64,000 nt of DNA from Gammaproteobacteria bacterium (GCA_032250735.1 JAVVEP010000008.1:1775-65774); one strand, 5' to 3'. Positions 1-14,619 are shown, numbered from the stretch's first letter. The notes: generated by a model from the letters alone, not told the origin. Program-made: numbers and translations.

Positions 1-1398
1 GCCGGCACTGGTGACTCGCACAAATTCCGGCGTAGTGCGCATCTTGTCAATCGTCGCGCAGCCGGTATAACCCATGCTGGAACGAATACCGCCGAGCAGC
101 TGATGGACCACCGGCGCCAGCGGGCCCTTGAAGGGCACGCGGCCTTCAATACCTTCTGGCACCAGCTTGTCGGCCTTGCTGCCTTCCTGGAAATAACGGT
201 CGCTGGAGCCCTCGGCACCGGTCATGGCCCCCAGCGATCCCATCCCACGATAGGATTTGTAGGAACGCCCCTGAAACAGCTCCACCTCACCCGGCGCCTC
301 CTCGGTGCCCGCAAACATGCTGCCGATCATGATGGAATAGGCGCCGGCCACCAGGGCCTTGGCTACATCGCCGGAGTAGCGGATACCACCGTCGGCGATC
401 AGGGGCACGCCGGTGCCGATCAGCGCAGTCGCCACGTTGTCGATCGCGGTGATCTGCGGTACGCCGACGCCGGCCACGATACGGGTGGTGCAGATGGAAC
501 CGGGACCAATGCCCACCTTCACACCGTCGGCGCCGGCCGCCACCAGGGCCCTGGCCGCATCAGCGGTGGCGATATTGCCGCCGATCACCTGCACCTGCGG
601 GAAATTCTTCTTGACCCAGCTGACGCGATCCAGCACGCCCTGCGAATGACCGTGGGCGGTGTCCACCACCACCACGTCCACCCCGGCCTCGACCAGGGCC
701 GCAACGCGCTCTGCGGTGCCGTCGCCGGTACCCACCGCCGCGCCCACCCGCAGCCGGCCCTGGCTGTCCTTGCAGGCATTGGGATATTCCGAGGCCTTCT
801 GGATGTCCTTGACGGTGATCAGGCCGCGCAGCCGAAAATTATCATCGACCACCAGCACCTTCTCTATGCGGTAATTGTGCAGCAGGGCCAGCACTTCGTC
901 GTTAGTGGCCCCCTCTTTTACCGTCACCAGTTTGTCTTTACCGGTCATGATGCTGGAAACGGGGCTGTCGAAGCGGGTCTCGAAGCGCAGATCACGCCCG
1001 GTGACGATACCGACCAGTTCCTCGCCATCCACCACCGGCACGCCGGAGATATTGTGGGCGCGGGTCAGGGCCAGTACGTCACGGATACTGGCATTGGGGT
1101 TCACCGAAATGGGGTCCTTGATCACCCCGCTCTCGTATTTCTTCACCAGCCGCACCTGTTCCGCCTGCTGCTCGCCGGTCATATTTTTGTGAATGATGCC
1201 GATACCGCCCTCCTGCGCCATGCTGATGGCCAGGCGTGCCTCGGTCACAGTGTCCATGGCGGCGGAAATCAGCGGAATATTCAGGGTGATCTCCCGTGTC
1301 AGTTGGGTGACCAGGCTCACTTCCTTGGGCATGACGGTAGAATGGGCGGGAATCAGTAAAACATCATCGAAAGTAAGGGCTTCTTGAGCTATACGCAT
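1..1398 (-). CDS. guaB: IMP dehydrogenase (3' end runs off window start)
   Basis: Minus-strand translation from ATG at 1398 reads [24 protein letters not shown]...[10 protein letters not shown]...CBS region...[15 protein letters not shown], typical IMPDH. The listed + ORF 103..1359 (G/A/H-rich) is its antisense shadow. Confidence 0.9.
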
Positions 1399-1644
1399 GA
1401 GCGGGATTCCAAATAGGGCCAGAAGTGGGTGGGGCGCAGATTATATAAGCTGGATGGGTAGCGGGCAAACTACTCGGCCCGTTAGGCCCGTTTCAGGCTT
1501 GATCTGCGCAGGGGTTGTGTGATTAAGTAGCGCTCGTGTATAAGAATTACCTACAATCTCAAGGTAACAGCTAGTGATAACACGCCGTTTTCCGCTTCAG
1601 GCAACCGTCTGGAAGGAAAGTAAATACGCATCGGAGGAGGAATA

Positions 1645-1968
1645 ATGAACAAATCTTTGATTTTTGGTGCCCTGATCTTCGCCCTCAGTGGTTGCTCAAT
1701 GTTTAGCGGTGGCGACTCTGCAGGTTCCGCTAACGCCGCTGCCGCCAATTCGGCTATCGCCGCTGCTGAGGCCGCGCTGGAAAAGGCCCGTGGCGTTGAG
1801 GGTGAATGGCGTGATGCCGACAAGAAGATGCTCAAGGCCGCCAAGGCTGCTGCCAGCAAGGGTGAGTTTGAAGAGGCGATCAAGCTGGCCGACAAGGCCA
1901 AGTTTGAGGGCGAAATGGGCTACACACAGGCCATGCAACAGAAGGACGCTGGACCCTGGTTGTTCTAA
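1645..1968 (+). CDS. small lipoprotein (Ala/Lys-rich, helical)
   Basis: GGAGGAGG SD 6 nt upstream. N-terminus MNKSLIFGALIFALSGCS is a lipobox signal peptide. Followed by a strong hairpin terminator. Confidence 0.6.
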   Translation: MNKSLIFGALIFALSGCSMFSGGDSAGSANAAAANSAIAAAEAALEKARGVEGEWRDADKKMLKAAKAAASKGEFEEAIKLADKAKFEGEMGYTQAMQQKDAGPWLF

Positions 1969-2048
1969 CGCCGGTTTTTTGGGGACGGCCTTAGCGTAAC
2001 GGTACTATCAGTACCGGCCCCGTTGTCGGCCCGCTCTAAAAGATCACC

Positions 2049-2086
2049 AAAAAGGCAGACTGCCCCGGCAGACTGCCTTTTTTTAT
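2049..2086 (+). terminator. intrinsic terminator (A-run/GC hairpin/T-run)
   Basis: aaaaaggcagactgccccggcagactgccttttttt: near-perfect inverted arms followed by T7 run, directly downstream of lipoprotein gene. Confidence 0.8.
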
Positions 2087-2127
2087 GCCTCACGTTCGCG
2101 ACAGCCTTCAACCACCAAAATCACGCA

Positions 2128-2300
2128 GATCGGGATACACTATGCCCATGCCGCAGACGCCAGCCCCAGAATTGACCCACGCACCCGAGCGCAAGATATA
2201 CAGCGTTTCGATGCTGATTTACCCCGTGCCGGTGCAAGGGGCGGAGGCGCCACCCTCCATCGTCGAGGCCATGCACCGCCATTTTCATCTCAGACAATGA
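2128..2300 (+). pseudogene. xseA remnant (5' end fused to an internal xseA piece; mosaic, non-functional)
   Basis: 2128-2212 is ~90% identical to the xseA start region at 8442-8530 (MPQTPAPE..EREIYSVSML). 2213-2285 matches xseA 8990-9060 (LIYPVPVQGVEAPPAIVEA). The reading frame ends in TGA overlapping the ATG of the next gene (ATGA at 2297-2300). Confidence 0.8.
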
Positions 2301-3139
2301 AAATCGCATACTGCGGCTATGACTTCTTCAGCGAGTGTCTGCAGGCATTATTGTCCAGGGGCGACGATGTCTATCGCGTGTTCACCTTCGAGTGCGATAA
2401 CCGTTTTGATTTCAATCACAACATAACCGAAATCAGCCGGCAATATTCTCTGCCGTTAACGGATCGACCAATCGGCAAAAACGACCTGGAACAATTGCGG
2501 CAGGAAGGTTGCGAGCTGGTGATCACCGCAGGCTACCGCTACAAGGTTCCGGACTTGTCCTCAGTCGGTATCAAAGGCATCAATATCCACCCCACTCTGT
2601 TGCCGGTGGGCAGGGGACCCTGGCCGCTTCCGTGGACGATTTTATCCGGCCAGCAACGCAGTGGCGTGACGATACACAAACTGACTCCGGACTTTGATGC
2701 GGGCGACATCCTGGTGCAGCGCGAGTTTGCGCTGGAAGCCAATGAAAACCTTGAGTCTCTCAGCGCCAAAACCCAACTCCAGGCCAAGGCGATGCTGACC
2801 GATCTCATGGATAATTTTACGGACGCGTGGCAAAGCGCCCGGCCGCAGGGGGAGGAATACAGTGCCTGGCCACGGCCTTCCATCGCCGATCGCACCCTGG
2901 ATTGGAATGCCGGCGTGGCGAAGCTGGATACCCTCTGCCGGGCTTTCGGCAAAATGGGATGTTATGGAAAATTCGATGGCAAAATCTGGATTGTCTACAG
3001 GCTCGTCGCCTGGCCGGCCCATCACGATTACGAGAGCGGCGCGGTCGTGCACCAGACGAACACAGAAATGATCGTGGCGGCCGCTGAAGGCCTTGTCAGC
3101 CTTCAGTATTTTGAACCTGCATCGTTGATAGCAGGCTAG
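2297..3139 (+). CDS. formyltransferase-family protein (Fmt/ArnA-N-like catalytic domain, no Fmt C-terminal domain)
   Basis: 280 aa with HPTLLPVGRGPWPLPWTILSG...GVTIHKLTPDFDAGDIL, the formyl-transferase SLLP/His/Asp catalytic signature. Lower GC than flanks. Confidence 0.75.
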   Translation: MKIAYCGYDFFSECLQALLSRGDDVYRVFTFECDNRFDFNHNITEISRQYSLPLTDRPIGKNDLEQLRQEGCELVITAGYRYKVPDLSSVGIKGINIHPTLLPVGRGPWPLPWTILSGQQRSGVTIHKLTPDFDAGDILVQREFALEANENLESLSAKTQLQAKAMLTDLMDNFTDAWQSARPQGEEYSAWPRPSIADRTLDWNAGVAKLDTLCRAFGKMGCYGKFDGKIWIVYRLVAWPAHHDYESGAVVHQTNTEMIVAAAEGLVSLQYFEPASLIAG

Positions 3140-3153
3140 CGGCCAGTGGTGCA

Positions 3154-4929
3154 ATGACTCATAAATTTGAACGATACCTGGCGTGGCAGAAACGGATCGC
3201 GCGGTTTTTTCTGCCCTATTTAAAGCCGGACCATACCAAGCTGTATCTCCTGAGCGCCTTCAGCCTGCTCATGACCGCCACCAATGCCTTCTTGATCTGG
3301 AAACTCGGCACGGCCGTGTCGCAGATCAGCGGAGGAGAATTCGGCCAGCTGAATAATACCTTGCTGATGATCGCCGCGCTGGCTTTGCTTAACCAGGTGC
3401 TACGTATTGCCTACGCGTATGTCTACCAGCGCCTAAGCCTCGCCTTCGTCGACAGGCTCAGGGGCAAAATGTTCGAGCACATCATGGAGGTTTCGGTTCC
3501 CATTCTGCAGCGCTTCAAGAAGGGCGACTTGATGGCCCGACTGAGCAGCGATGTGGACCGTGCCCTGACCTATGTGATTAATCTGCCACTCAACCTATTT
3601 GAGAACATCACTGTATTTGTTGCCTATGCCGTTGTGCTGCTATGGATCGACTGGAAGTTATCTCTGATTGCGCTGACCATGGCCCCCCTCTTTTTTCTGT
3701 CCCAGTTATATGTGGCGCCAAAAAGCGGCGAAATTTCCCGCCAATTCACCAAGGAACGGGTCGAGCTGGCCAACATCGAGGAGCAGACGCTGAGTAATTT
3801 GCGGGGCATCAGCACCTTCAATAGCGAGCTGTTCATGCGCGATACGCACAAGACCCAGTTTGATAGCGCGCGGAAGTGGGCGTTGAAAACCAGAGAGATT
3901 CAGATTCTCTATAACTCCCTGTTTACCGCGCTACTGTATTTTGCGGGTGTCGTAGTCGTCTACAGCGGCATCGCGGAAATCGAGTCGGGACAATTAGCCA
4001 TTGGTGCGCTGGTCAGCTTTCTGATTTATATCCGCAACATCACCGGGCCCATTCGCACCCTGGCGCGCATACCGATTACGTTGCAATCCGACCGCGTTGC
4101 GGCGGAGCGTCTGATGGAAATCCTGGCAATGGAGCCCGCCGTCGAGGACAGAGAAAGCGGCCGGTCGCTGCGTGTGCCGCACGGTGACATTCTGTTCAAG
4201 GATGTGTCGTTCACCTACCCGAATCAGGACCGGCCGGTATTTTCCCGGCTTTCCGCTCAGATCCGTGCCGGTGAATCCGTTGCCCTGGTCGGGCCGAGCG
4301 GGGCCGGCAAGTCTACCTTTGCCGGTTTGTTGTTACGCTTCCATGATCCACAGCAGGGATCCATCTGCATCGACGGCGTGGACATCAAGTCCGTCAGCCT
4401 GCGATCGCTGCGCAATCAGATCTCCATCGTCTGGCAGGAACCGTTTTTGGTCAACGGCAGCATTCGGCAGAATTTTTACCTGGCAAAACCGGATGCGACG
4501 GAAGCGCAGATGCAGGATGCCTGCAACTCCAGTTATGCCTGGGAATTCGTCGCCGGCCTGGAGCATGGTTTGGACACTGTCATCGGCGCCAACGGCATTG
4601 AGTTATCGGCCGGGCAACGGCAACGTCTGGCCATTGCCCAGGCCTTTCTGCGTGATACGCCGCTATTGATTCTGGATGAGGCCTCATCCGCGCTCGACAG
4701 CCGATCCGAGCAAATGGTTGCGGACGCCTTGCAGGCCCTGCGCAAGCAACGCACCACGGTGATTATCGCCCATCGCTTTTCTTCCATCCGCAGTGTGGAC
4801 AGGATTCTCTATATCGATGGAAAGGGTTGCCTGACAGTGGGCACGCACCAGGAGTTACTTGATCAGCATAGTGAATACAAGGCTGCCGTCGATTGGCAAA
4901 TGGCGGAGCGGCCAGGGGATGTCGGTTAA
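3154..4929 (+). CDS. ABC exporter, fused permease-ATPase (MsbA/ABCB type), no peptidase domain
   Basis: 591 aa. N-terminal 6-TM region, then Walker A GPSGAGKST, signature LSAGQRQRLAIAQAF, Walker B LLILDEASSALD. 15 nt downstream of formyltransferase (same operon). Confidence 0.9.
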   Translation: MTHKFERYLAWQKRIARFFLPYLKPDHTKLYLLSAFSLLMTATNAFLIWKLGTAVSQISGGEFGQLNNTLLMIAALALLNQVLRIAYAYVYQRLSLAFVDRLRGKMFEHIMEVSVPILQRFKKGDLMARLSSDVDRALTYVINLPLNLFENITVFVAYAVVLLWIDWKLSLIALTMAPLFFLSQLYVAPKSGEISRQFTKERVELANIEEQTLSNLRGISTFNSELFMRDTHKTQFDSARKWALKTREIQILYNSLFTALLYFAGVVVVYSGIAEIESGQLAIGALVSFLIYIRNITGPIRTLARIPITLQSDRVAAERLMEILAMEPAVEDRESGRSLRVPHGDILFKDVSFTYPNQDRPVFSRLSAQIRAGESVALVGPSGAGKSTFAGLLLRFHDPQQGSICIDGVDIKSVSLRSLRNQISIVWQEPFLVNGSIRQNFYLAKPDATEAQMQDACNSSYAWEFVAGLEHGLDTVIGANGIELSAGQRQRLAIAQAFLRDTPLLILDEASSALDSRSEQMVADALQALRKQRTTVIIAHRFSSIRSVDRILYIDGKGCLTVGTHQELLDQHSEYKAAVDWQMAERPGDVG

Positions 4930-4972
4930 TCAAGCAAGAGCAGAAAATCCGCTCCGTTGACGAGGCAAATAA

Positions 4973-5000
4973 AAAGGGCATTGCCTTGGCAATGCCCTTT
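4973..5000. terminator. bidirectional hairpin terminator between convergent genes
   Basis: aaagggcattgccttggcaatgcccttttg: 11-bp perfect stem flanked by A-run and T-run. A second hairpin ctcagcgg...ccgctgag lies at 5010-5040. Confidence 0.7.
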
Positions 5001-5076
5001 TGTGGACGCTCAGCGGACTAACTGAAATCTACCGCTGAGTGTGGTGCATCACGCGCTAATGCGTGATGCGGGCCGG

Positions 5077-5289
5077 TTAGGCGCCACCGCCCATACCACC
5101 ACCCATACCGCCGCCCATACCACCAGCGGCTGCGGCTGGTGCCGGGGCTGGTGCTGGAGCTGGTGCCGGAGCTGCTGCAGCGGGTGCCGGAGCGGCGGCC
5201 ATGCCGCCCATACCACCACCCATGCCACCACCCATGCCACCCCCCATACCGCCGCCCATACCACCACCGCCTCCCATTCCTCCACCCAT
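5077..5289 (-). CDS. 70-aa low-complexity protein composed only of Gly, Met, Ala, Pro: (MGGG)7-AAAPAPAAAAPAPAPAPAPAPAAAA-(GGM..MGGG)3-A
   Basis: AAGGAGAG SD 5 nt upstream of the ATG at 5289; TAA at 5077 followed by a hairpin. Third-position variation among GGN and GCN/CCN codons is synonymous in this frame but nonsynonymous in the opposite-strand His/Thr frame. A longer GTG start at 5424 would add a 45-aa non-repetitive N-terminal extension. Confidence 0.5.
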   Translation of the reverse strand: MGGGMGGGGGMGGGMGGGMGGGMGGGMGGMAAAPAPAAAAPAPAPAPAPAPAAAAGGMGGGMGGGMGGGA

Positions 5290-5913
5290 AACGCTCTCCT
5301 TTGCAATATCCGAATATTGATTAAGTATGTGTTTCACGTTCATGACCGAGTATCCGTGGCCTGTGAAACACGGCTCCTGATTGCCGATTTTATTGCTGAT
5401 TGATTGGTCGGCAATCGCGCGCACGAGACCACGCGCTTCCGGAGACTAGGATATTTATGTCCAATGGTCAACATTTGATGGTCAAAATCCACGATAAAGC
5501 GGTCGGCCTAATACCGGTATTTTTTCGATGCTTATAACCCGGCAATAGCCCGGCAATCACTCAGGGGCGATGATGTTGCGAGCGAGACGTGGGTACAACA
5601 GTGTGATTATTAAAGTATTTTAGTCCTGCACCGGCTTTCGTCAGCGCTATCTCGTTGTACCGGCCAGTTGTGCCTACCAATTGTGCCGGCCAAATTCACC
5701 CATTCTCATCTCCGACTGTTATTCTGGCCTGTGTGAAATTACATTATGATTTTTCTAGCTCTGGCCGGACTTTCCGGCTTTGTGCAGAACCGAGGGGGAA
5801 TTTGCTGGCTTGCCGGACCTGCTTCGCATACCATTTTTATGGTTATAGGGGTGCGCACAATGGCGAGTTAGGAAGGCATATCCCATCGAATCCACACGCA
5901 AAGGTCTTCACTC

Positions 5914-6711
5914 ATGTCAATTGGAATAGAAACGGCCGGACGCCCGGCGCCACTCATTCTTCCCACCACCGAACCCGTGGCGGATTTTCATCCCGAGCCC
6001 GACGATTTCTGCTTCTGTAACAGCGGCAAGCGATTCGGTGGTTGTTGCGGATCCACCGACCTGGTGCGCCCGCCGCCTTATGGGCTGTTCATGTTCGAAA
6101 ATTTTCTCGATCCCAAGCAGGCCCGGGAGTTGACCGACTATGCCGAGCAGTGCGAGGGCGAGCGCCTGATGGTGATCGATAATATACAGTCCACCCCCGA
6201 CAACATCGTCAAGGTGGAAGACCCGCGGCGTATTACCGAACGGGTCAAGTTGGGTGCCAGACGCAAGGAAATCCAGGCGATGATGGGGCGGGCTTTTATC
6301 GATCTGGCGCAACGGTGTGTCGGCGCCAAACTGGATTGGTACGAGCTGCCCGATTTGATGCGGTACCGGCAAGGGGGATTTTATGTCCGGCACGCCGACA
6401 GCCAGAACAAGGATGAGGCGACCAACACGTGGCGCAAGGTGATCGATCGTGATCTCAGCATGCTCATCTACTTAAACGATGGCTATGAAGGCGGCGAGCT
6501 GAGCTTTTACAAATTCAATTATCAGATCCGGCCGCGGGCCGGTGCGGCGGTCCTGTTCCCCTCGGACCATCGCTATTTGCACCAGGCCGAAACCCTTAAA
6601 AGCGGTGTCCGCTATGCCCTGGTTAGCTGGGCCTCCGTGCAAGGGGTGCCGAAGATTGCGTCGCAGCCGCCCCAATGCGCCGTGCCTGTGGAATATAAGC
6701 CGGGTCAATAG
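5914..6711 (+). CDS. SEC-C motif / 2OG-Fe(II) oxygenase (PKHD/prolyl-4-hydroxylase-like)
   Basis: N-terminal CFCNSGKRFGGCCGS is a SEC-C zinc motif. C-terminal HADSQ...GGELSF...VLFPSDHRYLHQAETLKSGVRYALVSW matches the HxD...H...R facial triad/2OG-binding pattern of the P4H/PKHD hydroxylase fold. Confidence 0.8.
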   Translation: MSIGIETAGRPAPLILPTTEPVADFHPEPDDFCFCNSGKRFGGCCGSTDLVRPPPYGLFMFENFLDPKQARELTDYAEQCEGERLMVIDNIQSTPDNIVKVEDPRRITERVKLGARRKEIQAMMGRAFIDLAQRCVGAKLDWYELPDLMRYRQGGFYVRHADSQNKDEATNTWRKVIDRDLSMLIYLNDGYEGGELSFYKFNYQIRPRAGAAVLFPSDHRYLHQAETLKSGVRYALVSWASVQGVPKIASQPPQCAVPVEYKPGQ

Positions 6712-7889
6712 CCCAGCAAATCGCCGGGCAGTCCGTCCTCGGGGTAATCTGCTGCCAAAAGTTTTCGCGCCAATTCCTCCGCCGCCGCCAGCTCCGCCTG
6801 ATGTGCGGACAATAGTGCTGTTATTTCTCCGTCCCGTTGTTGCGGGCTGTAGGTGAATTTACTGTTCTTGGAATAGACGCCGAGCAGCGGCGCCATGGCC
6901 TGCTCAAGCGTTGTCCCCTCGATCGGCATCAAACCGAACCAGTCTGCGCATCGTGCAACGGCGGTGTAGGGATTGGCGAGCATGTGATTGAACTCGAGAC
7001 TGCGTACGCGGGCCGGCATGCTGCGGTAGGCCTTGTGGAACAGTGCGATGTTGTACGACCAATACAATGCCGCCAGTTCCCCATAGGCGTCCTCGGCCAC
7101 CGTGAAGTCCGGGCCGAGCCCCAGCAGTTGATTGATGGGCTGGCGCAACGCGGCGTAGCGCTGCGCGATCCACTGCTTGCGGTTATTCGCCTTGAGGCAG
7201 CCGGCGAGAAATTCTTGCAGCGGGGTGTGCATAAACAGCAGAGGGGCGTCCGCATGCCGCTCGATCATGGCCAGCATGAGGGGGTTGGCATAATCGTTGG
7301 CCTTGACCACCGCCATCTGCTGCGCATCAAAACGGCGTGACAACAATGCCATGACGCGCCGGTACCAGGCATCTTTATCCTGGGGGGAATTGGCCGGATT
7401 GCGCAGATATGCCAGCAGGTTGCCCAGCAGTTCCGGCTCGCGGATCGGCAGCGTGTGATACGCCGCGTCGAGGGCCTGGGACATGAGTGTTGAACCGCAA
7501 AAGGCGGTGTGAAAGATGAAGGCGGTTTGTTGACCGGCGATTTTGTCACAGGCCGACCGTAGCCATGCCAGGTCAGTTTGGATAATGCAGCTACCTTTGA
7601 TGCGTCCCGGGTCCATAAACACGCTGTCCCGATACGTCTGCGGCGACATCATGATGAAGTAGCTCTGGTATTCGGCAAAATTTACCCGCGCCGGAAACAG
7701 GGCGGGGCTGGCATCGATGTGCTCCAGCGCCTCCTGCAATTGCGCAGTCAGCGGCTCGTCTGCGACAACACCTTCGGTGGTTATAGCGGCCACGATGTGG
7801 GGCTGCGAGCGCTCGGCCTTGCCGCAACAGGCTCCGTAGACCAGGCCGCTGCCGCACGGGCAAGGCATCTCACTCGATTCGATATCCAT
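6705..7889 (-). CDS. SEC-C motif protein with ~370-aa C-terminal domain of unknown function (possibly P-loop/sulfotransferase-like; unverified)
   Basis: True start MDIESSEMPCPCGSGLVYGACCGK (ATG 7889, SD AAGGGAGA). The ORF-track N-terminal extension to 8144 is read-through. Converges on and overlaps the previous gene by 7 nt. HTAFCGST resembles a PAPS-binding loop, but only weakly. Confidence 0.6.
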   Translation of the reverse strand: MDIESSEMPCPCGSGLVYGACCGKAERSQPHIVAAITTEGVVADEPLTAQLQEALEHIDASPALFPARVNFAEYQSYFIMMSPQTYRDSVFMDPGRIKGSCIIQTDLAWLRSACDKIAGQQTAFIFHTAFCGSTLMSQALDAAYHTLPIREPELLGNLLAYLRNPANSPQDKDAWYRRVMALLSRRFDAQQMAVVKANDYANPLMLAMIERHADAPLLFMHTPLQEFLAGCLKANNRKQWIAQRYAALRQPINQLLGLGPDFTVAEDAYGELAALYWSYNIALFHKAYRSMPARVRSLEFNHMLANPYTAVARCADWFGLMPIEGTTLEQAMAPLLGVYSKNSKFTYSPQQRDGEITALLSAHQAELAAAEELARKLLAADYPEDGLPGDLLGY

Positions 7890-7921
7890 TGTTATTCTCC
7901 CTTCTCTATCCTGGCGAGCCG

Positions 7922-8340
7922 TCAATAGCCCAGGTTCGGCGCCAGCCAATACTCCGCGAACATGCGCGTCATGTCCTTGCGTTGCGCGTAGTCGTCGACC
8001 TGATCCTGGTTGATTTTGCCTACCGTGAAATAGGCGGCCTCGGGGTGCGAAAAATAGAAACCGCTGACGGCGGCGGTGGGCAACGAGGCCATGGCCTCGG
8101 CGAACCAGCTGCCGGTGCTTTCCTTCACCGCCATGAGATCCCACAGCAGGTTCTTTTCGGTGTGCTCGGGGCAGGCAGGATAACCGGGCGCGGGGCGAAT
8201 GCCCTGGTATTTCTCATAGATGAGATCGGTGTTGTCGAAGTACTCGTTCGGCGCGTAGCCCCAGATCTCCCTGCGCGCCTTCCGGTGCAAAAGTTCAGCG
8301 AAGCTCTCGGCGAAACCGCGAGGAAGTATAAACCCCCTGT
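7922..8340 (-). pseudogene. methionine synthase (metH) C-terminal fragment, ~139 codons, 5' truncated
   Basis: Translation ...HRKARREIWGYAPNEYFDNTDLIYEKYQGIRPAPGYPACPEHTEKNLLWDLMAVKE...VSGFYFSHPEAAYFTVGKINQDQVDDYAQRKDMTRMFAEYWLAPNLGY* is the conserved reactivation-domain C-terminus of B12-dependent MetH. Similarity stops abruptly near 8340, where lipoprotein-like sequence begins. Confidence 0.75.
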
Positions 8341-8365
8341 TCGCTCTAAAACCACCCCGGACCAC

Positions 8366-8440
8366 GCTGAAAAGGCCCGTGGCGTTAAGGGTGAATGGCG
8401 TAATGCCGACAAGGCCAAGTTTGAGGGCGAAATAGGCTAC
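8366..8440 (+). pseudogene. remnant of the lipoprotein gene (internal and 3' deletions) abutting xseA
   Basis: EKARGVKGEWRNADKAKFEGEIGYA corresponds to lipoprotein residues at 1778-1935, with the ~100 nt between two gccgacaag repeats deleted. Confidence 0.7.
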
Positions 8441-8455
8441 GCATCGCGATACACT

Positions 8456-9829
8456 ATGCGCATGCCGCAGACACCAGCCCCTGAATCGACCCTTGCACCC
8501 GAGCGCGAGATCTACAGCGTTTCGATGCTGAACAATGCCGCGCGCGACCTGTTGGAGCGGGAATTTCCGCTGATCTGGGTGGAGGGTGAGATCTCCAACC
8601 TCGCCCGCCCCGCCTCCGGCCACCTCTATTTCAGCCTCAAGGATGCCGACGCCCAGCTGCGCTGCGCCATGTTCAAGCTGCGCAACCGGCTGGTGGGTTT
8701 CCGCCCCGACAATGGTCAGCAGGTACTGGTGCGCGGACGGCTCAGCCTCTATCCGGCGCGGGGTGACTACCAGCTCATTGTCGAACACATGGAAGAGGCC
8801 GGCGACGGCGCCCTGCGCCGCCAGTTCGAGCTACTCAAACAACGCCTGGGTCACGAAGGCCTGTTCGATGCCGGGAGCAAACAACCCCTACCGGCCCTGC
8901 CCCGCCGACTGGGGGTGATCACCTCACCCAGCGGGGCGGCCATCCGCGACATCCTCAGCGTGCTCAGGCGGCGCTTTCCAAGCATCCCGGTGCTGATTTA
9001 CCCCGTGCCGGTGCAAGGGGTGGAGGCGCCACCCGCCATCGTCGAGGCGCTGCGGACGGCGAATACCCGCCGGGAATGCGATCTGCTGATCCTGGCCCGC
9101 GGCGGTGGCTCACTGGAAGACCTGTGGGCCTTCAACGACGAGGCGGTGGCCCGCGCCATCCACGCCAGCACCCTTCCGGTGGTCTGCGGCGTGGGCCATG
9201 AGGTCGACGTCACCATCGCCGATTTTGTGGCCGATGTGCGTGCGCCCACGCCCTCGGCGGCGGCCGAGCTGGTCAGCCCGGATCGCAACGAGTGGCTGGA
9301 CAGTTTTGCGGCCTGGCAGCAGCGCCTGACACGCAGTTGGCAGACCCAGCTGGCCCGGCGTCAGCAACACCTGGACTGGCTACGCCGGCAACTGAAACAC
9401 CCGGGACAGCGACTGCGTGAACGGGCCCAACGGCTGGATGAGCTGGAGCAGCGTCTCAGGCTGGCGCGGCTGGGCCGACTGCGCCAGCTGCAGGCCCGGC
9501 TGAACACCCTGCGCGCGCGGCTGTATGGCCACTCGCCGGTGCAGCCGCTGCGCGCGACCCGCCTGCGACTGGACAGCCTGCAGCACCGCAGTCAGCGCGC
9601 CATTCGCGCCAGACTGACCCAACAGCGCGCCCGGCTTGGCAATCTCAGCCGGGCGCTGGATGCGGTCAGCCCGCTGGCCACCCTCGGCCGCGGCTACGCC
9701 ATCGTGCAGAAACCCGACGGCAAGGTCGTGCGCCGCGTCGACGAGGTGTGCGTGGGGGAGCGCATCAACACCCGGCTCGGTAGCGGCCGTCTCGACTGTC
9801 GTGTCGAGGCCGTGCACGGGGAGGATTGA
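8456..9829 (+). CDS. xseA: exodeoxyribonuclease VII large subunit
   Basis: MRMPQTPAPE...IWVEGEISNLARPASGHLYFSLKDADAQLRCAMF (OB fold)...GVITSPSGAAIRD...ARGGGSLEDLWAFNDE, then coiled-coil Arg/Gln-rich tail. ORF-track start at 7889 is upstream read-through. Confidence 0.9.
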   Translation: MRMPQTPAPESTLAPEREIYSVSMLNNAARDLLEREFPLIWVEGEISNLARPASGHLYFSLKDADAQLRCAMFKLRNRLVGFRPDNGQQVLVRGRLSLYPARGDYQLIVEHMEEAGDGALRRQFELLKQRLGHEGLFDAGSKQPLPALPRRLGVITSPSGAAIRDILSVLRRRFPSIPVLIYPVPVQGVEAPPAIVEALRTANTRRECDLLILARGGGSLEDLWAFNDEAVARAIHASTLPVVCGVGHEVDVTIADFVADVRAPTPSAAAELVSPDRNEWLDSFAAWQQRLTRSWQTQLARRQQHLDWLRRQLKHPGQRLRERAQRLDELEQRLRLARLGRLRQLQARLNTLRARLYGHSPVQPLRATRLRLDSLQHRSQRAIRARLTQQRARLGNLSRALDAVSPLATLGRGYAIVQKPDGKVVRRVDEVCVGERINTRLGSGRLDCRVEAVHGED

Positions 9830-9835
9830 AGGCCT

Positions 9836-10738
9836 GTGAATACCGCCATCAAATGGCTGATTTACTTTGGCCTGCTGCTCACCACCGGCCTGCCGGCGAT
9901 CGCCCTGGCGGCAACGCCCGCTGCCAGCCCCCTGCCCCAGACCGCGGCCGTGCCCGGCGGTATCGTCACGCTGAATCTGGGCCCCGCCGAGGGCCCGGCG
10001 CCGGTGGTGCATTACCAGCAGCGGCGGGTGATGGTGGTGCAGGCCGACGGGCACTGGCAGGCGGTGGTCGGCATCCCCCTCACTGCCCGCAGTGGCCCGC
10101 AGAACCTCAGGCTGGCCGGTCGCAGCCAGACCGTGGAGTTTGAGGTCCAGGCCAAGGACTATGCCGAGCAGCGACTCACCATCAAAGACAAACGCAAGGT
10201 CAATCCCAACCCGGATGACCTGACCCGCATTCGTGGCGAACGGGGGCGCATTGTTAACGCGCTACGTCACTGGCAATTTCAGGATAGCGTGGACACCCGC
10301 TTCATCCTGCCGGTGACAGGCCGACTCAGCAGCCCCTTCGGCCTGCGGCGTTTTTTCAACGAGCAACCCCGCAAACCCCACAGCGGCATCGATATCGCCG
10401 CGCCGGAGGGCACGCCCATTGTCGCCCCCGCCGCCGGGCGCATCATCGAAACCGGGGACTTTTTCTTCAACGGCAACTCGGTGTTCATCGACCATGGCCA
10501 GGGGCTGGTGACGATGTACTGCCACATGAGTCGGGTGGAGGTGAAGGCCGGACAGCGGGTCGCGCGTGGCGAGGCCATCGGCGCCGTGGGCCAGACCGGT
10601 CGCGTCACCGGCCCGCACCTGCACTGGAGTGTCAGCCTCAACGATGCGCGGGTGGATCCGGGCCTGTTTTTCGAGGATCTCGAGACACTGCTCACGCCCG
10701 CCGCGGCCCCGCTGAGCGAGGCCCGCAGCGCCCCCTGA
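9836..10738 (+). CDS. M23 family metallopeptidase (LytM/NlpD-like), membrane anchored
   Basis: N-terminal TM segment; HSGIDIAAPEGTPIVAPAAGRI...GPHLHWSV are the HxxxD and HxH M23 motifs. Confidence 0.85.
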   Translation: MNTAIKWLIYFGLLLTTGLPAIALAATPAASPLPQTAAVPGGIVTLNLGPAEGPAPVVHYQQRRVMVVQADGHWQAVVGIPLTARSGPQNLRLAGRSQTVEFEVQAKDYAEQRLTIKDKRKVNPNPDDLTRIRGERGRIVNALRHWQFQDSVDTRFILPVTGRLSSPFGLRRFFNEQPRKPHSGIDIAAPEGTPIVAPAAGRIIETGDFFFNGNSVFIDHGQGLVTMYCHMSRVEVKAGQRVARGEAIGAVGQTGRVTGPHLHWSVSLNDARVDPGLFFEDLETLLTPAAAPLSEARSAP

Positions 10739-10811
10739 TCCCCCTTGCGCCGACGCAGGCGGGCCGGTAAGGTTGCGCGCCACAGCAACTCACACGAACC
10801 ACGCAGTCACC

Positions 10812-11609
10812 ATGAAAAAATTTGCCCAAACCCTGGTCGAAAAAACCGCCTTTGAATATTTCATCGTCGGACTCATCCTGTTCAACGCCGTGATCCTCGG
10901 CCTGGAGACCTCGCCCGAAATTGTCGCCGAGTACGATAGCTGGCTGCACTTTGGCAATCAGTTTATCCTCGCCATCTTTATCCTCGAGGCGGCACTGAAG
11001 ATCATCGCCGTCGCACCCCGGCTCAGGCTCTATTTCGGCAACGGCTGGAACCTGTTCGACTTCACCGTGGTGGTGCTCTCGCTGATTCCCGCCAGCGGCG
11101 AATACGCGATGATCGCCCGCCTGGCACGGCTGCTGCGGGTCGCGCGGCTGATCTCTACCATCCCCGAGCTGCGGTTGATCATTTCCACCCTGGTGCGCTC
11201 CATCCCCAGCATGGGCCACGTGCTGATGTTGATGGGGGTAATCTTCTACATCTACGCGGTGGCTGGCTATCACCTGTTCCACGAACACGATCCTGAACAC
11301 TGGCGCAATCTGGGTATGTCGTTGCTCACCCTGTTCCGCGTCGTTACCCTCGAAGACTGGACCGACGTGATGTACACCGCCATGGAGATGCACTACCTGA
11401 GCTGGATGTACTTCGTCAGCTTCGTGGTGGTGGGTACCTTCGTGGTCATCAACCTGTTCATCGCCGTGGTGCTCAACAACCTCGAGGAGGCCAAACAGGA
11501 ACAACTGGCGGCGCTACAGACACCGGCCAGCAAGGACGAGATCCTCAAGGAATTGCAGCAGACACAGGAAGCGCTCAGGCGACTCCAGGCGAGGTTGGAA
11601 AAACAGTGA
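10812..11609 (+). CDS. bacterial voltage-gated ion channel (BacNav/NaChBac family), pore filter TLEDWTD
   Basis: 266 aa. S4 segment with Arg every third residue (RLARLLRVARLIS). Pore helix FRVVTLEDWTDVMY. Single 6-TM domain. Confidence 0.85.
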   Translation: MKKFAQTLVEKTAFEYFIVGLILFNAVILGLETSPEIVAEYDSWLHFGNQFILAIFILEAALKIIAVAPRLRLYFGNGWNLFDFTVVVLSLIPASGEYAMIARLARLLRVARLISTIPELRLIISTLVRSIPSMGHVLMLMGVIFYIYAVAGYHLFHEHDPEHWRNLGMSLLTLFRVVTLEDWTDVMYTAMEMHYLSWMYFVSFVVVGTFVVINLFIAVVLNNLEEAKQEQLAALQTPASKDEILKELQQTQEALRRLQARLEKQ

Positions 11610-12025
11610 GCCGCGATACCATCAGCAACCGCATCGACATCAGCCTGGAGTTCTATTTCAAGGGGGAACGCTATACGCCCACCGCCAGCATCGAGCTGGA
11701 TGGGCTCATCGGCAACGACGACGGCCTGCCCTCGTTTCACCAGATCCTGGCCAGGCGCAACGATATCGACCTGCTTTCCTACCACTATGAGATCATGCTG
11801 GAGGAGCCGGTGCGGGTCACCGGCGCAGAGGGCCTGGTGGCAGACTATGTGACCGATGGCCGGCTGGATGAGGCGGGTTTTCTACAGGCCTGGCGCGAAC
11901 AGGGGATGTCGGCGCAACTGCAGGCCATCGCCCAACAGTATTTAGCGATCGATGATTTGCAGAAAAACCCAGCATTGAAAGATGCCTTAACCGCCGCTTT
12001 TCAACTTGGCAGAGAGATCGGCTAA
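11606..12025 (+). CDS. hypothetical protein translationally coupled to the channel gene
   Basis: Start overlaps the channel stop (GTGA). 139 aa, no recognisable motif. Confidence 0.5.
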   Translation: MSRDTISNRIDISLEFYFKGERYTPTASIELDGLIGNDDGLPSFHQILARRNDIDLLSYHYEIMLEEPVRVTGAEGLVADYVTDGRLDEAGFLQAWREQGMSAQLQAIAQQYLAIDDLQKNPALKDALTAAFQLGREIG

Positions 12026-12041
12026 AACCCCGCTCGCTGCG

Positions 12042-13148
12042 TTAGTCCTCCGCACCCATGGCCTTCGCCCGCGCCTGCCGCGCGGCATTTTCCGCCTCGT
12101 GTTGCGCGGCATTCCAGTCCGGCTCCGCTTCCGGCCAGCCCGCCAGGTGTTTTTGCACCAGGGCCGACAGGGCCTTGATGTGGTCCGGCCGGTCATTCAG
12201 CGCGGGAATGTAGTGAAACTGCTCGCCGCCGGCGTCGAGATAGGCGTGCTTGTTTTCCACCGTGATCTCTTCCAGGGTTTCCAGGCAGTCCGCCGAAAAC
12301 CCGGGGCAGATGATGTCCACCGATTTCACCCCGGCGGCGCCCAGCTCCCGCAGGGTCTCGATGGTGTAGGGCTGTAGCCACTCCTCACGACCAAAGATGG
12401 ACTGAAAGGTCAGCTGCCAGCGGTCAGCTGCCAGGCCCAGACGTTCGGCCACCAGCCGCGCGGTCTTCTGGCAATGGCAGTGATAGGGATCGCCTTCGGT
12501 GAGAAAACGCCGGGGGGTGCCGTGAAAGGAGAACAGCAATTTCTGCGGCGGCTCGCGTCCGCTCCAGGACTCCCGAATGCTGGCGGCCAGCGCCTCAATA
12601 TAACCGGTCTCATCGTGATATTGATTGACGAAGCGCAGCTCCGGCATCCAGCGCCAGTGGGCCATCTCCGCGGCAATGGCATCAAAGGTGGAGGCCGTGG
12701 TACTGCACGAATACTGCGGATACAGCGGCAGCACCAGGATGCGACGCGCACCGGCGTCGCGCAATTTTTGCATCGCCGAGGCCAGCGAAGGGTTGCCGTA
12801 ACGCATGCCCAGCTCCACCACCACCGGGCCGGGCAGACGCTGCGCCAGTTCGGTGCGCAGGGCCTCCAGCTGGCGTCGGGCGATCGCCAGCAGCGGCGAG
12901 CCGTCCTCGGTCCAGATACTGGCGTAGGCCCGGGCCGAACGCGCCGGCCGGATGCGCAGAATCACCCCGTGTAGAATCAGCCACCAAAGGGGGCGCGGCA
13001 GGTTGTCCACAATGCGCGGGTCCCACAGGAACTCCCCCAGATAACGACGCAAGGCCCCCGCAGTGGGGGCATCCGGCGTACCCAGATTGGTGATGAGCAC
13101 ACCGGTGGTCATCTGACTGTCGTGGCTAAAACGGGTGCTGGTCGACAT
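12042..13148 (-). CDS. hemH: ferrochelatase
   Basis: GVLITNLGTPDAPT...RYLGEFLWDPRIV...VLPLYPQYSCSTT...HGTP signature. The N-terminal 12 aa may be an extension; the alternative start is the Met of MTTGVL. Confidence 0.9.
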   Translation of the reverse strand: MSTSTRFSHDSQMTTGVLITNLGTPDAPTAGALRRYLGEFLWDPRIVDNLPRPLWWLILHGVILRIRPARSARAYASIWTEDGSPLLAIARRQLEALRTELAQRLPGPVVVELGMRYGNPSLASAMQKLRDAGARRILVLPLYPQYSCSTTASTFDAIAAEMAHWRWMPELRFVNQYHDETGYIEALAASIRESWSGREPPQKLLFSFHGTPRRFLTEGDPYHCHCQKTARLVAERLGLAADRWQLTFQSIFGREEWLQPYTIETLRELGAAGVKSVDIICPGFSADCLETLEEITVENKHAYLDAGGEQFHYIPALNDRPDHIKALSALVQKHLAGWPEAEPDWNAAQHEAENAARQARAKAMGAED

Positions 13149-13379: not shown

Positions 13380-14030
13380 ATGAGCAAAACCCTGAAAGTG
13401 GCCCTCGGCCTGGGCTTCGCCATGTTGCTCATCGGCATCGCCATCAGCTTCACGCAACGAGGATCCGTTGCCACGGACAATGACGATGCGGTGCTAGCGG
13501 ATGCGCGTCTTGCCACACCCAGACCGCTGACCGCCTTTGCGCTGACGGCCCACGATTCAAGGCCGCTCGACCGGGAGCGGTTGCGGGGCCGATGGACGCT
13601 GCTGTTTTTCGGCTATACCCACTGCCCCGATGTCTGCCCGATCACCCTCAGCGAACTGGCGGGCATGGCCAGAACGCTGGAACCGACGCTACGGGACGAC
13701 ACCCAGTTTGTGTTTGTCTCGGTGGATCCACAACGGGACACACCCGAGTCACTGGGGGACTACGTCCGCTATTTTGACGAGCGCTTTTTAGGTGCAACGG
13801 GCAGCATCGAGGCGTTGACCTCACTCGCCCGGCAACTGGACTCCCGGTTCAGCCTGGAGACCGATCCCGCCGGTGAACCCGTCGTCAACCATTCCAGCGC
13901 CATGTTGTTGATCGACCCCCAGGTCCGGTATTATGCCCGCCTCAAGGCACCGCACTATGCCGAGCAGATTCGCACGCAGTATCTGGCCCTACGGGCGGAA
14001 TACCAACAGTTTCAATCCAGTCGCCCATAA
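13380..14030 (+). CDS. SCO1/SenC family copper chaperone (thioredoxin fold)
   Basis: N-terminal TM anchor; LLFFGYTHCPDVCP CxxxC copper-binding motif. Confidence 0.85.
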   Translation: MSKTLKVALGLGFAMLLIGIAISFTQRGSVATDNDDAVLADARLATPRPLTAFALTAHDSRPLDRERLRGRWTLLFFGYTHCPDVCPITLSELAGMARTLEPTLRDDTQFVFVSVDPQRDTPESLGDYVRYFDERFLGATGSIEALTSLARQLDSRFSLETDPAGEPVVNHSSAMLLIDPQVRYYARLKAPHYAEQIRTQYLALRAEYQQFQSSRP

Positions 14031-14085
14031 ATCCGGCGCCGCAATCAACATCACCATCACATTTTTCCACAATCCCGAGACGCCC

Positions 14086-14619
14086 ATGAAGCCTACCAGA
14101 GCATTAGCAATAATTTTCGTTCTACTGTCTTTGATCACCGCAGCAACCGGCGCCACAGCAGGCAAGCTTGAGATACACGACGCCTGGGCGCGCGAGGCGC
14201 CACCGAATGCGGCGGTCATGGCGGCCTATCTGACCCTGCACAATCACTCTGAGCAGACCTACACCCTGGTCAGCGCCGCTTCACCTGACTTTGAGCGCGT
14301 TGAAATACACCGTACGCAACAGCGGGATGGCATGACAACGATGACCCCCGTCTCGCGCGTCATGCTGAGCGCGAACGGCAGTGTCAGCTTTCAACCCGGT
14401 GGCCTGCATCTGATGTTGATGCAAGCCAAAAAACCGCTCAAGGCCGGCGATGCTGTTACACTGCGCCTGTTTTTTAGCGACGAAAGTTCGCTGTCGATTT
14501 CCGCTCCGGTCAAAAAGGCCGCGCCGGGCAATGGACACGCCATGCAGCATGGCGAACACGAAACCCAGCATGACAGCCCGCACAATGCACACGACAAAGA
14601 TCACCACTCTTCACACTAA
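14086..14619 (+). CDS. periplasmic copper chaperone PCu(A)C (DUF461)
   Basis: Signal peptide; H(x)nM...HLMLM Met/His Cu(I) motif; His-rich tail. Confidence 0.8.
   Translation: MKPTRALAIIFVLLSLITAATGATAGKLEIHDAWAREAPPNAAVMAAYLTLHNHSEQTYTLVSAASPDFERVEIHRTQQRDGMTTMTPVSRVMLSANGSVSFQPGGLHLMLMQAKKPLKAGDAVTLRLFFSDESSLSISAPVKKAAPGNGHAMQHGEHETQHDSPHNAHDKDHHSSH

Follow-up and report, generated by a model that had tools for sequence, protein, structure and literature searches.

In a 64,000-nucleotide stretch of DNA from a Gammaproteobacteria bacterium (GCA_032250735.1, JAVVEP010000008.1:1775-65774; hereafter the window), two convergent open reading frames (ORFs) each begin with a SecA-type SEC-C knuckle. 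ORF1 (5914-6711, plus strand, 265 amino acids) joins its N-terminal knuckle to a predicted prolyl-hydroxylase-type Fe(II)/2-oxoglutarate (2OG) oxygenase, and ORF2 (6705-7889, minus strand, 394 amino acids) carries its knuckle ahead of a small α/β domain (residues ~30-115) and a predicted atypical sulfotransferase-fold domain (residues ~122-394). ORF1 ends in CCG GGT CAA TAG (6700-6711, with CAA TAG at 6706-6711), and the TGA stop codon of ORF2 is the reverse complement of 6705-6707. The stop regions of the two genes therefore overlap by 7 nt (6705-6711), as an earlier, sequence-only reading of the window had described for this pair of SEC-C-bearing frames. ORF2 starts with an ATG at 7889, preceded by AAGGGAGA; this start is backed by the N-termini of 45 homologs and by a database protein of 100% identity (P0001). 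A longer, GTG-initiated version of ORF2 reaching 8144 was rejected on the basis of the homolog N-termini; it is an over-extension into a remnant of metH.

We gathered 167 related loci, of which those with at least 34% identity, all from uncultured Gammaproteobacteria, are referred to here as close relatives. A prolyl 4-hydroxylase (P4H)-type gene accompanies the ORF2 homolog at 27 of the 30 non-redundant close-relative loci that have at least 900 nt of downstream flank, so that the co-occurrence of the two SEC-C proteins, which the sequence-only reading had put forward as a check, is borne out. The two genes are convergent at every one of the 34 loci where both were seen, down to 34% identity, which backs the functional pairing suggested earlier. 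At these 34 loci the two stops are between -21 and +423 nt apart, except for one outlier of 2806 nt, and they overlap in nine. Because these distances vary, the overlap, real as it is in the window, has no conserved significance, and we rejected it as a conserved regulatory feature. It is the tail-to-tail arrangement that is conserved.

The knuckle of ORF1 (6010-6048, plus strand; CFCNSGKRFGGCC, residues 33-45) reads C33-F-C35-N-S37-G-K-R-F41-G-G-C44-C45 and that of ORF2 (7824-7862, minus strand; CPCGSGLVYGACC, residues 10-22) reads C10-P-C12-G-S14-G-L-V-Y18-G-A-C21-C22, both having the form CxCxSGx3[FY]x2CC. The pattern CxCx8C[CH] occurs exactly twice in the six frames of the 64-kb window, solely in these two ORFs, and is therefore not a chance pattern. 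SecA-like metal-binding domains are defined by four Cys, a Ser and an aromatic residue, bind ribosomes and are also found on ribosome-associated methionine aminopeptidases (bioRxiv 10.1101/613315). Both ORFs display this ligand pattern (CxCx8C[C/H], a Ser following the second Cys, and an aromatic position), and all six of these positions are invariant in 40 ORF1 and 46 ORF2 orthologs; the loss of cysteines in orthologs, named at the outset as the observation that would speak against a shared module, was not found. ORF2 scores 20.9-23.7 bits against Pfam SEC-C (PF02810; gathering cut-off 20.4). ORF1 scores 12.6 bits (E = 0.13), which is under this cut-off, and some of its orthologs carry precomputed PF02810 matches. 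When compared with the PDB, the ORF2 profile matched the metal-binding domains of YchJ and SecA (E = 0.003-0.03), and the ORF1 family profile also matched the C-terminal knuckle of YchJ (E = 0.006).

The likeness of both ORFs to the SecA, YecA and YchJ domains thus lies in the CxCx8CC spacing with its conserved Ser and aromatic residue. The differences are that the knuckle is N-terminal rather than a C-terminal tail, that it is borne by enzymes of two different folds, and that its basic residues are depleted: L-V-Y-G-A of ORF2 aligns with K-K-Y-K-Q of SecA, leaving none of the KKxK residues, and only K-R is kept in the ORF1 counterpart K-R-F-G-G. Judged by the SecA-SecB complex, the loss of KKxK would argue against SecB binding by ORF2. 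The ORF1 knuckle region is modelled with a predicted local distance difference test score (pLDDT) above 92, which is compatible with a structural metal site and with a tethered module alike, as pLDDT alone cannot separate the two. Only this clade has the SEC-C motif; elsewhere, ORF2-like and oxygenase genes are paired without it.

The oxygenase part of ORF1 matches Pfam PF13640 with an E-value of 6.5e-16 (59.5 bits; cut-off 27). Its active site, H160-x-D162…H223…R233, is intact, with all four residues invariant in 40 orthologs, and its predicted double-stranded β-helix carries the HxD…H triad together with the basic residue for the 2OG C5 carboxylate. A Foldseek comparison of the AlphaFold2 model (pLDDT 92.3) with the PDB returned mostly prolyl hydroxylases as top matches, the P4Hs at E-values of 1e-9 to 1e-10. 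They include PBCV-1 vCPH (TM-score 0.70), Pseudomonas putida PPHD in complex with EF-Tu (TM-score 0.68), Chlamydomonas Cr-P4H with a (Ser-Pro)5 peptide, PHD2 and Bacillus anthracis P4H (BaP4H). PiuC/YbiX-type (PKHD) hydroxylases are also among the Foldseek matches; when the ORF1 family profile was compared with solved relatives by sequence, P3H1, vCPH and BaP4H ranked ahead of PiuC. The P4H-fold assignment made from the sequence is thereby confirmed by PF13640 and Foldseek, and sequence and model comparisons together show ORF1 to be built like a peptidyl-prolyl hydroxylase, in its predicted fold as well as in its complete Fe/2OG site. With the P4Hc/PHD group (vCPH, Cr-P4H-1, BaP4H, PPHD), which supplies its best Foldseek and hidden Markov model matches, ORF1 shares the double-stranded β-helix, the iron triad and the 2OG Arg. 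It differs from this group in its N-terminal Cys4 knuckle and conserved RPPP linker, in an identity of only 16-20%, and in its obligatory pairing with a sulfotransferase-fold gene. Viral and algal P4Hs act on peptides with Pro-Ala or Ser-Pro repeats, similar to the (Ala-Pro)n block encoded by a neighbouring gene described below.

ORF2 has more than 150 full-length homologs. Its AlphaFold2 model (pLDDT 93.1, predicted TM-score 0.92) was compared with the PDB using Foldseek, and the top 50 matches are all sulfotransferase-fold enzymes, nearly all of them 3′-phosphoadenosine 5′-phosphosulfate (PAPS) sulfotransferases; CurM-ST, TPST2, Stf9 and 3-OSTs are among them. An hhalign comparison with canonical TPR-sulfotransferase domains gave a probability of 83% (E = 8.5e-6). 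No NCBIfam model matches ORF2, Pfam detects no domain in it except SEC-C and a sub-threshold Sulfotransfer_3 (16.8 bits, E = 0.008; cut-off 27), and the knuckle is the sole match of the ORF2 sequence profile in the PDB. The fold assignment therefore rests on AlphaFold2, Foldseek and hhalign. The initial guess that ORF2 is sulfotransferase-like holds at the level of the fold, and structure prediction did not place the protein in an unrelated housekeeping family.

The same guess had taken the FCGST motif for a P-loop, and as a canonical PAPS loop this motif does not stand. The signature of ORF2 is H127-x-A-F-C131-G-S133-T134-L, E151-P, K196 and Y-S-K341. Its T-A-F-C-G-S-T-L segment aligns in hhalign with L-P-R-S-G-T-T-L, placing Phe130 at the catalytic Arg/Lys and Cys131, an almost invariant residue, at the Ser of the 5′-phosphosulfate-binding loop; position 130 is F, H, Y or N in 75 of the 76 family representatives. 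The 3′-phosphate motif RRDPRD..S aligns with M220-H221...G230/C231 of ORF2, where the binding Arg and Ser are missing, and across most of the family its positions are occupied by L/M and Y. ORF2 thus has the fold of a PAPS sulfotransferase without either the catalytic Lys/Arg loop (P-K/R-S/T-G-T-T) or the 3′-phosphate motif. What it keeps are the Ser-Thr of the P-loop, a Glu at the catalytic-base position of TPST and two invariant Lys: S133, T134, E151, K196 and K341 are invariant in the 76 representatives, which are 21-46% identical.

Set against PAPS sulfotransferases that act on peptides or activated hydroxyls (TPST1/2, RaxST and the CurM/OLS domains), ORF2 is therefore alike in (i) overall fold, (ii) the TPST-type catalytic elements, namely the P-loop-like G-S-T, the Glu that follows ~20 residues downstream and the Lys of the 'DK-P-N' strand, and (iii) with respect to CurM, the logic of activation through a hydroxyl and then a sulfate. 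Beyond the substituted loop, the missing 3′-phosphate ligands and the sub-threshold Sulfotransfer_3 score, it differs in its extra N-terminal domain and SEC-C knuckle, and its candidate substrate has no Tyr, Ser or Thr. The sequence and model comparisons show that ORF2 belongs to a large and undescribed sulfotransferase-fold branch, non-canonical and conserved, and the invariant residues argue that it is probably an active enzyme.

At 50% identity, the ORF2 family comprises 2,835 clusters (E ≤ 1e-3), or 458 clusters at E ≤ 1e-30. Its distant members, found in Sphingomonadales and other groups, are 25-34% identical to ORF2, have no SEC-C and matched no Pfam or NCBIfam model. At 44 of 122 distant loci the ORF2-like gene lies beside a divergent gene for a TPR-containing aspartyl/asparaginyl β-hydroxylase (TPR plus Asp_Arg_Hydrox, PF05118), and at 40 of the 122 a convergent gene for a TPR-containing canonical sulfotransferase (Sulfotransfer_3, PRSGTT loop) lies on the other side. 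TonB-dependent receptor genes are often found near distant ORF2-like genes and stand beside some close loci as well (L004). At the Planctomycetota locus L052, a P4H-type gene comes after the ORF2-like one. The ORF2-like domain is also fused to a TauD-type Fe/2OG oxygenase (P0285), to TPR and the OGT-like glycosyltransferase GT41 (P0269), and to an NTP_transf_5 (PF14907) nucleotidyltransferase (P0284, P0370), which suggests that it works on protein or peptide substrates beside other modifying enzymes. With four independent links, through P4H neighbours in this clade and at L052, the TPR-AspH neighbour and the TauD fusion, the ORF2 fold family is tied to Fe/2OG oxygenases of three families and to protein-binding modules.

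The Sphingomonadales-type arrangement (L023, L031, where it lies around 8546-12429, L034, L037, L044, L045, L053, L063, L064, L072-L077, L083, L085 and others) also has a TonB-dependent receptor and two small secreted proteins. A literature search found no published description of this cluster.

The constant adjacency or fusion of ORF2-like genes to oxygenases could also mean that ORF2 assists the hydroxylase without catalysing anything itself. On this view its sulfotransferase fold would be degenerate and serve as a scaffold or chaperone that binds the peptide, the part played by protein disulfide isomerase in collagen P4H, and hydroxylation would be the only chemistry. The loss of the PAPS-binding signature residues agrees with such a role, as does the fact that TPST-like folds bind extended peptides. 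A scaffold would hardly be expected to keep S133, T134, E151, K196 and K341 invariant in a family of more than 450 clusters (E ≤ 1e-30), a pattern of catalytic or cofactor-site residues, and the domain is also fused to GT41 and to nucleotidyltransferases; we therefore regard a purely structural ORF2 as unlikely.

A candidate substrate or product is encoded nearby. Between the oxygenase gene and a gene for an ATP-binding cassette (ABC) transporter lies a gene (5077-5289, minus strand) for a leaderless 70-amino-acid peptide, MGGGMGGGGGMGGGMGGGMGGGMGGGMGGM-AAAPAPAAAAPAPAPAPAPAPAAAA-GGMGGGMGGGMGGGA, which consists of 33 Gly, 18 Ala, 11 Met and 8 Pro and no other residue. The sequence AAGGAG stands 7 nt upstream of its ATG, and its DNA is 12-nt periodic. 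Related M(G/M)n-(A/P)n[-(G/M)n] ORFs with Shine-Dalgarno sequences (SDs) of their own are divergent in DNA and keep their position and composition. Across loci the design is M(GGGM)n-(AP)n-(GGGM)n, leaderless and 60-90 amino acids long. The window and L002/3, L004/15, L006, L007/91, L008, L009, L010, L012/93, L013, L092 and L167 have the peptide gene between the oxygenase and ABC genes. At L088/89 the peptide gene sits right past the oxygenase gene, and the ABC gene is located beyond ORF2. Runs of (AP)≥4 in any frame occur once in the window and not at all in 1.59 Mb of distant control loci. NCBIfam has no model for the peptide, and no leader peptide, protease or RiPP (ribosomally made, post-translationally modified peptide) recognition element (RRE) domain was found at the peptide-bearing clusters.

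The ABC gene (3154-4929, plus strand) encodes a 591-amino-acid half-transporter exporter of the MsbA/BmrA/ABCB type with no peptidase domain. When the count is confined to the 24 non-redundant loci that have 3.5 kb of flank or more, ABC homologs (50-82% identity) stand beside the pair at 13 and the peptide gene is present at 10-11, and every locus with a peptide gene also has the ABC gene; peptide, modifying enzymes and transporter are thus found together at 10-11 of the 13 ABC-bearing loci. A further, accessory member of the cluster is an Fmt/ArnA-like formyltransferase gene (2297-3139, plus strand, 280 amino acids, N and C domains), which is present at L009, L010, L012/L093, L013, L086, L165 and L167. 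Apart from the oxygenase, ABC and Fmt genes, gene clustering around the close loci brought up no further neighbour that is conserved throughout. The suggestion that the two SEC-C enzymes share a substrate, made when only their common module was in view, hereby gains a concrete candidate in a peptide gene close to an ABC exporter.

The repetitive DNA of the peptide gene also opens other frames, a His/Thr/Cys-rich one at 5041-5403 (plus strand) and a Trp/Val-rich one at 5049-5306 (minus strand). We rejected both as by-products of the 12-nt periodicity because only the G/M-A/P frame has an SD, an ATG and a conserved composition. Such frames could mislead gene callers, and the database gene call at L004 is in the wrong frame. 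At three loci with an Fmt gene, a second tiny gene encoding M(GGGM)n only (~29-32 amino acids from the first Met) is convergent with the formyltransferase gene (L009 8547-8693, L010 8091-8204, L013 5920-6042); the main peptide of these loci is bipartite, G/M then A/P, as against tripartite in the window. The sole Gly-Met repeat in the 1.59 Mb of control loci (L052 1577-3388, minus strand) is the GGM tail at the C-terminus of an ordinary GroEL and not a peptide gene; the small peptides look like such tails made much longer and standing alone. Two loci with the pair only encode proteins of related composition. At L105 (6587-7834, minus strand), a lipoprotein with ~140 residues of AP/GP repeats is divergent from the ORF2 homolog, and at L014 (1557-4154, plus strand) a secreted S8 subtilisin-like protease ends in a TP/AP linker and a (GGGGM)n tail. 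Both have signal peptides and may be alternative, Sec-exported substrates.

The reading that we favour, at a probability of roughly 0.45, is that ORF1 and ORF2 form a conserved two-enzyme module for protein or peptide modification, with a peptide substrate and ABC export. ORF1 would hydroxylate prolines in the (Ala-Pro)n stretch of the peptide or, in genomes without the peptide gene, of Ala-Pro-rich secreted proteins. ORF2 would then act on the same substrate, most likely by transferring a group onto the new hydroxyl from a sulfuryl or other phospho-linked donor, possibly adenosine 5′-phosphosulfate (APS) rather than PAPS. As the peptide contains only Gly, Ala, Met and Pro, the hydroxyl must be installed before any O-linked transfer. 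The ABC transporter would export the product, and the two SecA-type Cys4 knuckles would be a common docking or structural element through which both enzymes reach one partner, be it the substrate, each other or the ribosome. The match of the ORF2 fold to peptide- and hydroxyl-directed sulfotransferases (TPST2, CurM-ST) is among the points in favour of this reading. The reading also retains the second modification step proposed for ORF2 in the sequence-only reading, for which sulfation is only one possibility given the missing canonical PAPS residues.

Several observations weigh against this reading. The pair occurs without the ABC gene and without the peptide gene at 11 of the 24 non-redundant loci. 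The closest relatives, L165 and L086 (76-77% identity), have the ABC and Fmt genes, but the gap of ~130 nt between their oxygenase and ABC genes leaves no room for a peptide gene. The core gene order is kept (ORF2 forward, oxygenase reverse, peptide forward, ABC reverse), and this alternation of strands among the four genes provides no evidence of an operon. In the window, expression of ORF2 is uncertain because a metH fragment precedes it. ORF2 is also without the canonical PAPS-binding residues (Phe130 for Arg/Lys; Met220-His221...Gly230 for R-R...S), which makes sulfation doubtful, and in Sphingomonadales a canonical sulfotransferase gene is present alongside the ORF2-like one, so that the product of the latter is probably not simply a redundant sulfotransferase. 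Finally, a search of the full-text literature found no description of the pair, the peptide or the ORF2 family.

That about half of the loci carry the pair alone would be expected if the enzymes served the translation machinery. The knuckles would then dock both enzymes on the ribosome, in the manner of the SecA, YecA and YchJ metal-binding domains, ORF1 would hydroxylate a ribosomal protein, EF-Tu (as PPHD does) or nascent chains in general, and the neighbouring peptide and ABC genes would have nothing to do with the pair. The ribosome binding of SecA-like domains and their occurrence on methionine aminopeptidases speak for this possibility, and the PPHD/EF-Tu complex (TM-score 0.68) is among the best structural matches of ORF1. 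It would not account for how closely and specifically the pair is associated with Ala-Pro/Gly-Met peptide genes, however, and it sits poorly with an ORF2 knuckle devoid of the basic residues of the SecA motif, with a SEC-C that is clade-restricted and dispensable to ORF2-like/oxygenase pairs elsewhere, and with the lack of conserved ribosomal or EF-Tu genes nearby. We consider this explanation improbable.

The clusters without a peptide gene at L165 and L086 bring up another account, in which oxygenase, sulfotransferase-fold enzyme, formyltransferase and ABC transporter make and export a small molecule such as a modified amino acid or a siderophore-like metabolite, the knuckles being structural and the low-complexity ORF incidental. 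Consistent with this, ORF1 also resembles the PiuC/YbiX-type hydroxylases, which are linked to iron uptake, TonB-dependent receptors stand beside some close loci (L004) and many distant ones, and a TauD fusion exists. On the other hand, no nonribosomal peptide synthetase, polyketide synthase or other genes for building a scaffold are conserved, ORF1 is closest to protein prolyl hydroxylases in sequence and in fold, the associated enzymes of distant loci carry protein-binding TPR domains, and the peptide gene keeps its position and composition across divergent DNA. We consider a small-molecule pathway improbable as well.

As a system for modifying a peptide, the cluster resembles RaxX/RaxST/RaxB in its genomic logic, which groups a peptide gene with the genes for a modifying enzyme and an ABC exporter. 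Further parallels are leaderless peptides with dedicated ABC transporters, such as leaderless bacteriocins and the staphylococcal phenol-soluble modulins with Pmt, and RiPP clusters in general; the likeness lies in a gene for a small ribosomal peptide, here without a signal or leader, beside an ABC exporter and tailoring enzymes. It is set apart from such clusters by (i) the extreme low complexity of a peptide made only of Gly, Met, Ala and Pro, (ii) the lack of a leader/core architecture, a protease or an RRE-type recognition domain, and (iii) an enzyme pair that also exists without the peptide gene. In the way it would work, the proposed system is akin to eukaryotic hydroxyproline-rich secreted proteins. 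These comparisons suggest a system built from a ribosomal peptide, tailoring enzymes and an exporter, in which one enzyme family is new and the shared module unusual.

In its broadest form, the favoured reading can be extended to a new class of exported, leaderless, ultra-low-complexity (GGGM)n-(AP)n-(GGGM)n peptides. These would be hydroxylated by a P4H and then O-derivatised by a branch of the sulfotransferase fold that has no site for the 3′-phosphate of PAPS, with the enzymes recruited through their knuckles, and the 'HxAFCGSTL' family would be a general second-step partner of protein-hydroxylating Fe/2OG oxygenases in Proteobacteria and Planctomycetota. ORF2 would here use APS or a different donor, or would activate the hydroxyl for elimination as CurM does, and the knuckles, binding zinc or iron, would possibly recruit the enzymes at the ribosome for co-translational modification. 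So inclusive a claim is doubtful as a whole, and we put it forward tentatively.

To our knowledge, protein prolyl hydroxylation in bacteria is rare and poorly understood. If the module works as proposed, a hydroxylase with a dedicated second enzyme and an Ala-Pro substrate would constitute a testable bacterial counterpart of eukaryotic hydroxyproline-rich secreted proteins. Knowing which reaction ORF2 performs would put a function on thousands of proteins and may uncover a role for the sulfotransferase fold that does not involve PAPS, and SecA-type knuckles as a shared module on modifying enzymes bear on the role of these domains outside SecA.

Between the convergent ABC and peptide genes, a GC-rich hairpin (4971-5000) with a perfect 10-bp stem, GGGCATTGCC-AA-GGCAATGCCC, is flanked by an A-run and a T-run and is probably a bidirectional terminator; a simple terminator scan did not list it, its 2-nt loop being outside the rules of the scan. 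The 624-nt spacer between the divergent peptide and oxygenase genes (5290-5913) has a low GC content (0.49-0.52), contains no Rfam match and no supported ORF, and may hold promoters or regulatory sites for both genes. Rfam searches at a relaxed threshold over window positions 1-12000 gave nothing relevant, and promoter and terminator scans gave no helpful signal above shuffled sequences.

The five-gene cluster forms an island among the housekeeping genes xseA, M23 peptidase, ion channel, hemH, SCO1, PCuAC and psd. The metH remnant directly upstream of ORF2 (7922-8314, minus strand) is a 3′ fragment that encodes the activation domain only (PF02965 positions 160-272). At L165, an intact metH that matches this fragment ends 20 nt before the ORF2 homolog. 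The island is flanked by scrambled, ~90%-identical duplicates of a small-lipoprotein/xseA junction (1780-2274 versus 8369-9053; repeat families D2-D5). Together, the duplicates and the metH fragment point to acquisition by recombination from a donor that had the cluster beside metH, and the fragment is probably a remnant brought in with the cluster by recombination or horizontal gene transfer. Genes for the copper chaperones SCO1/SenC and PCu(A)C lie adjacent to each other at 13380-14619 of the window, ~5.5 kb from the cluster. An exported, Met-rich peptide could in principle bind Cu(I); linkage to copper genes was seen in no related locus.

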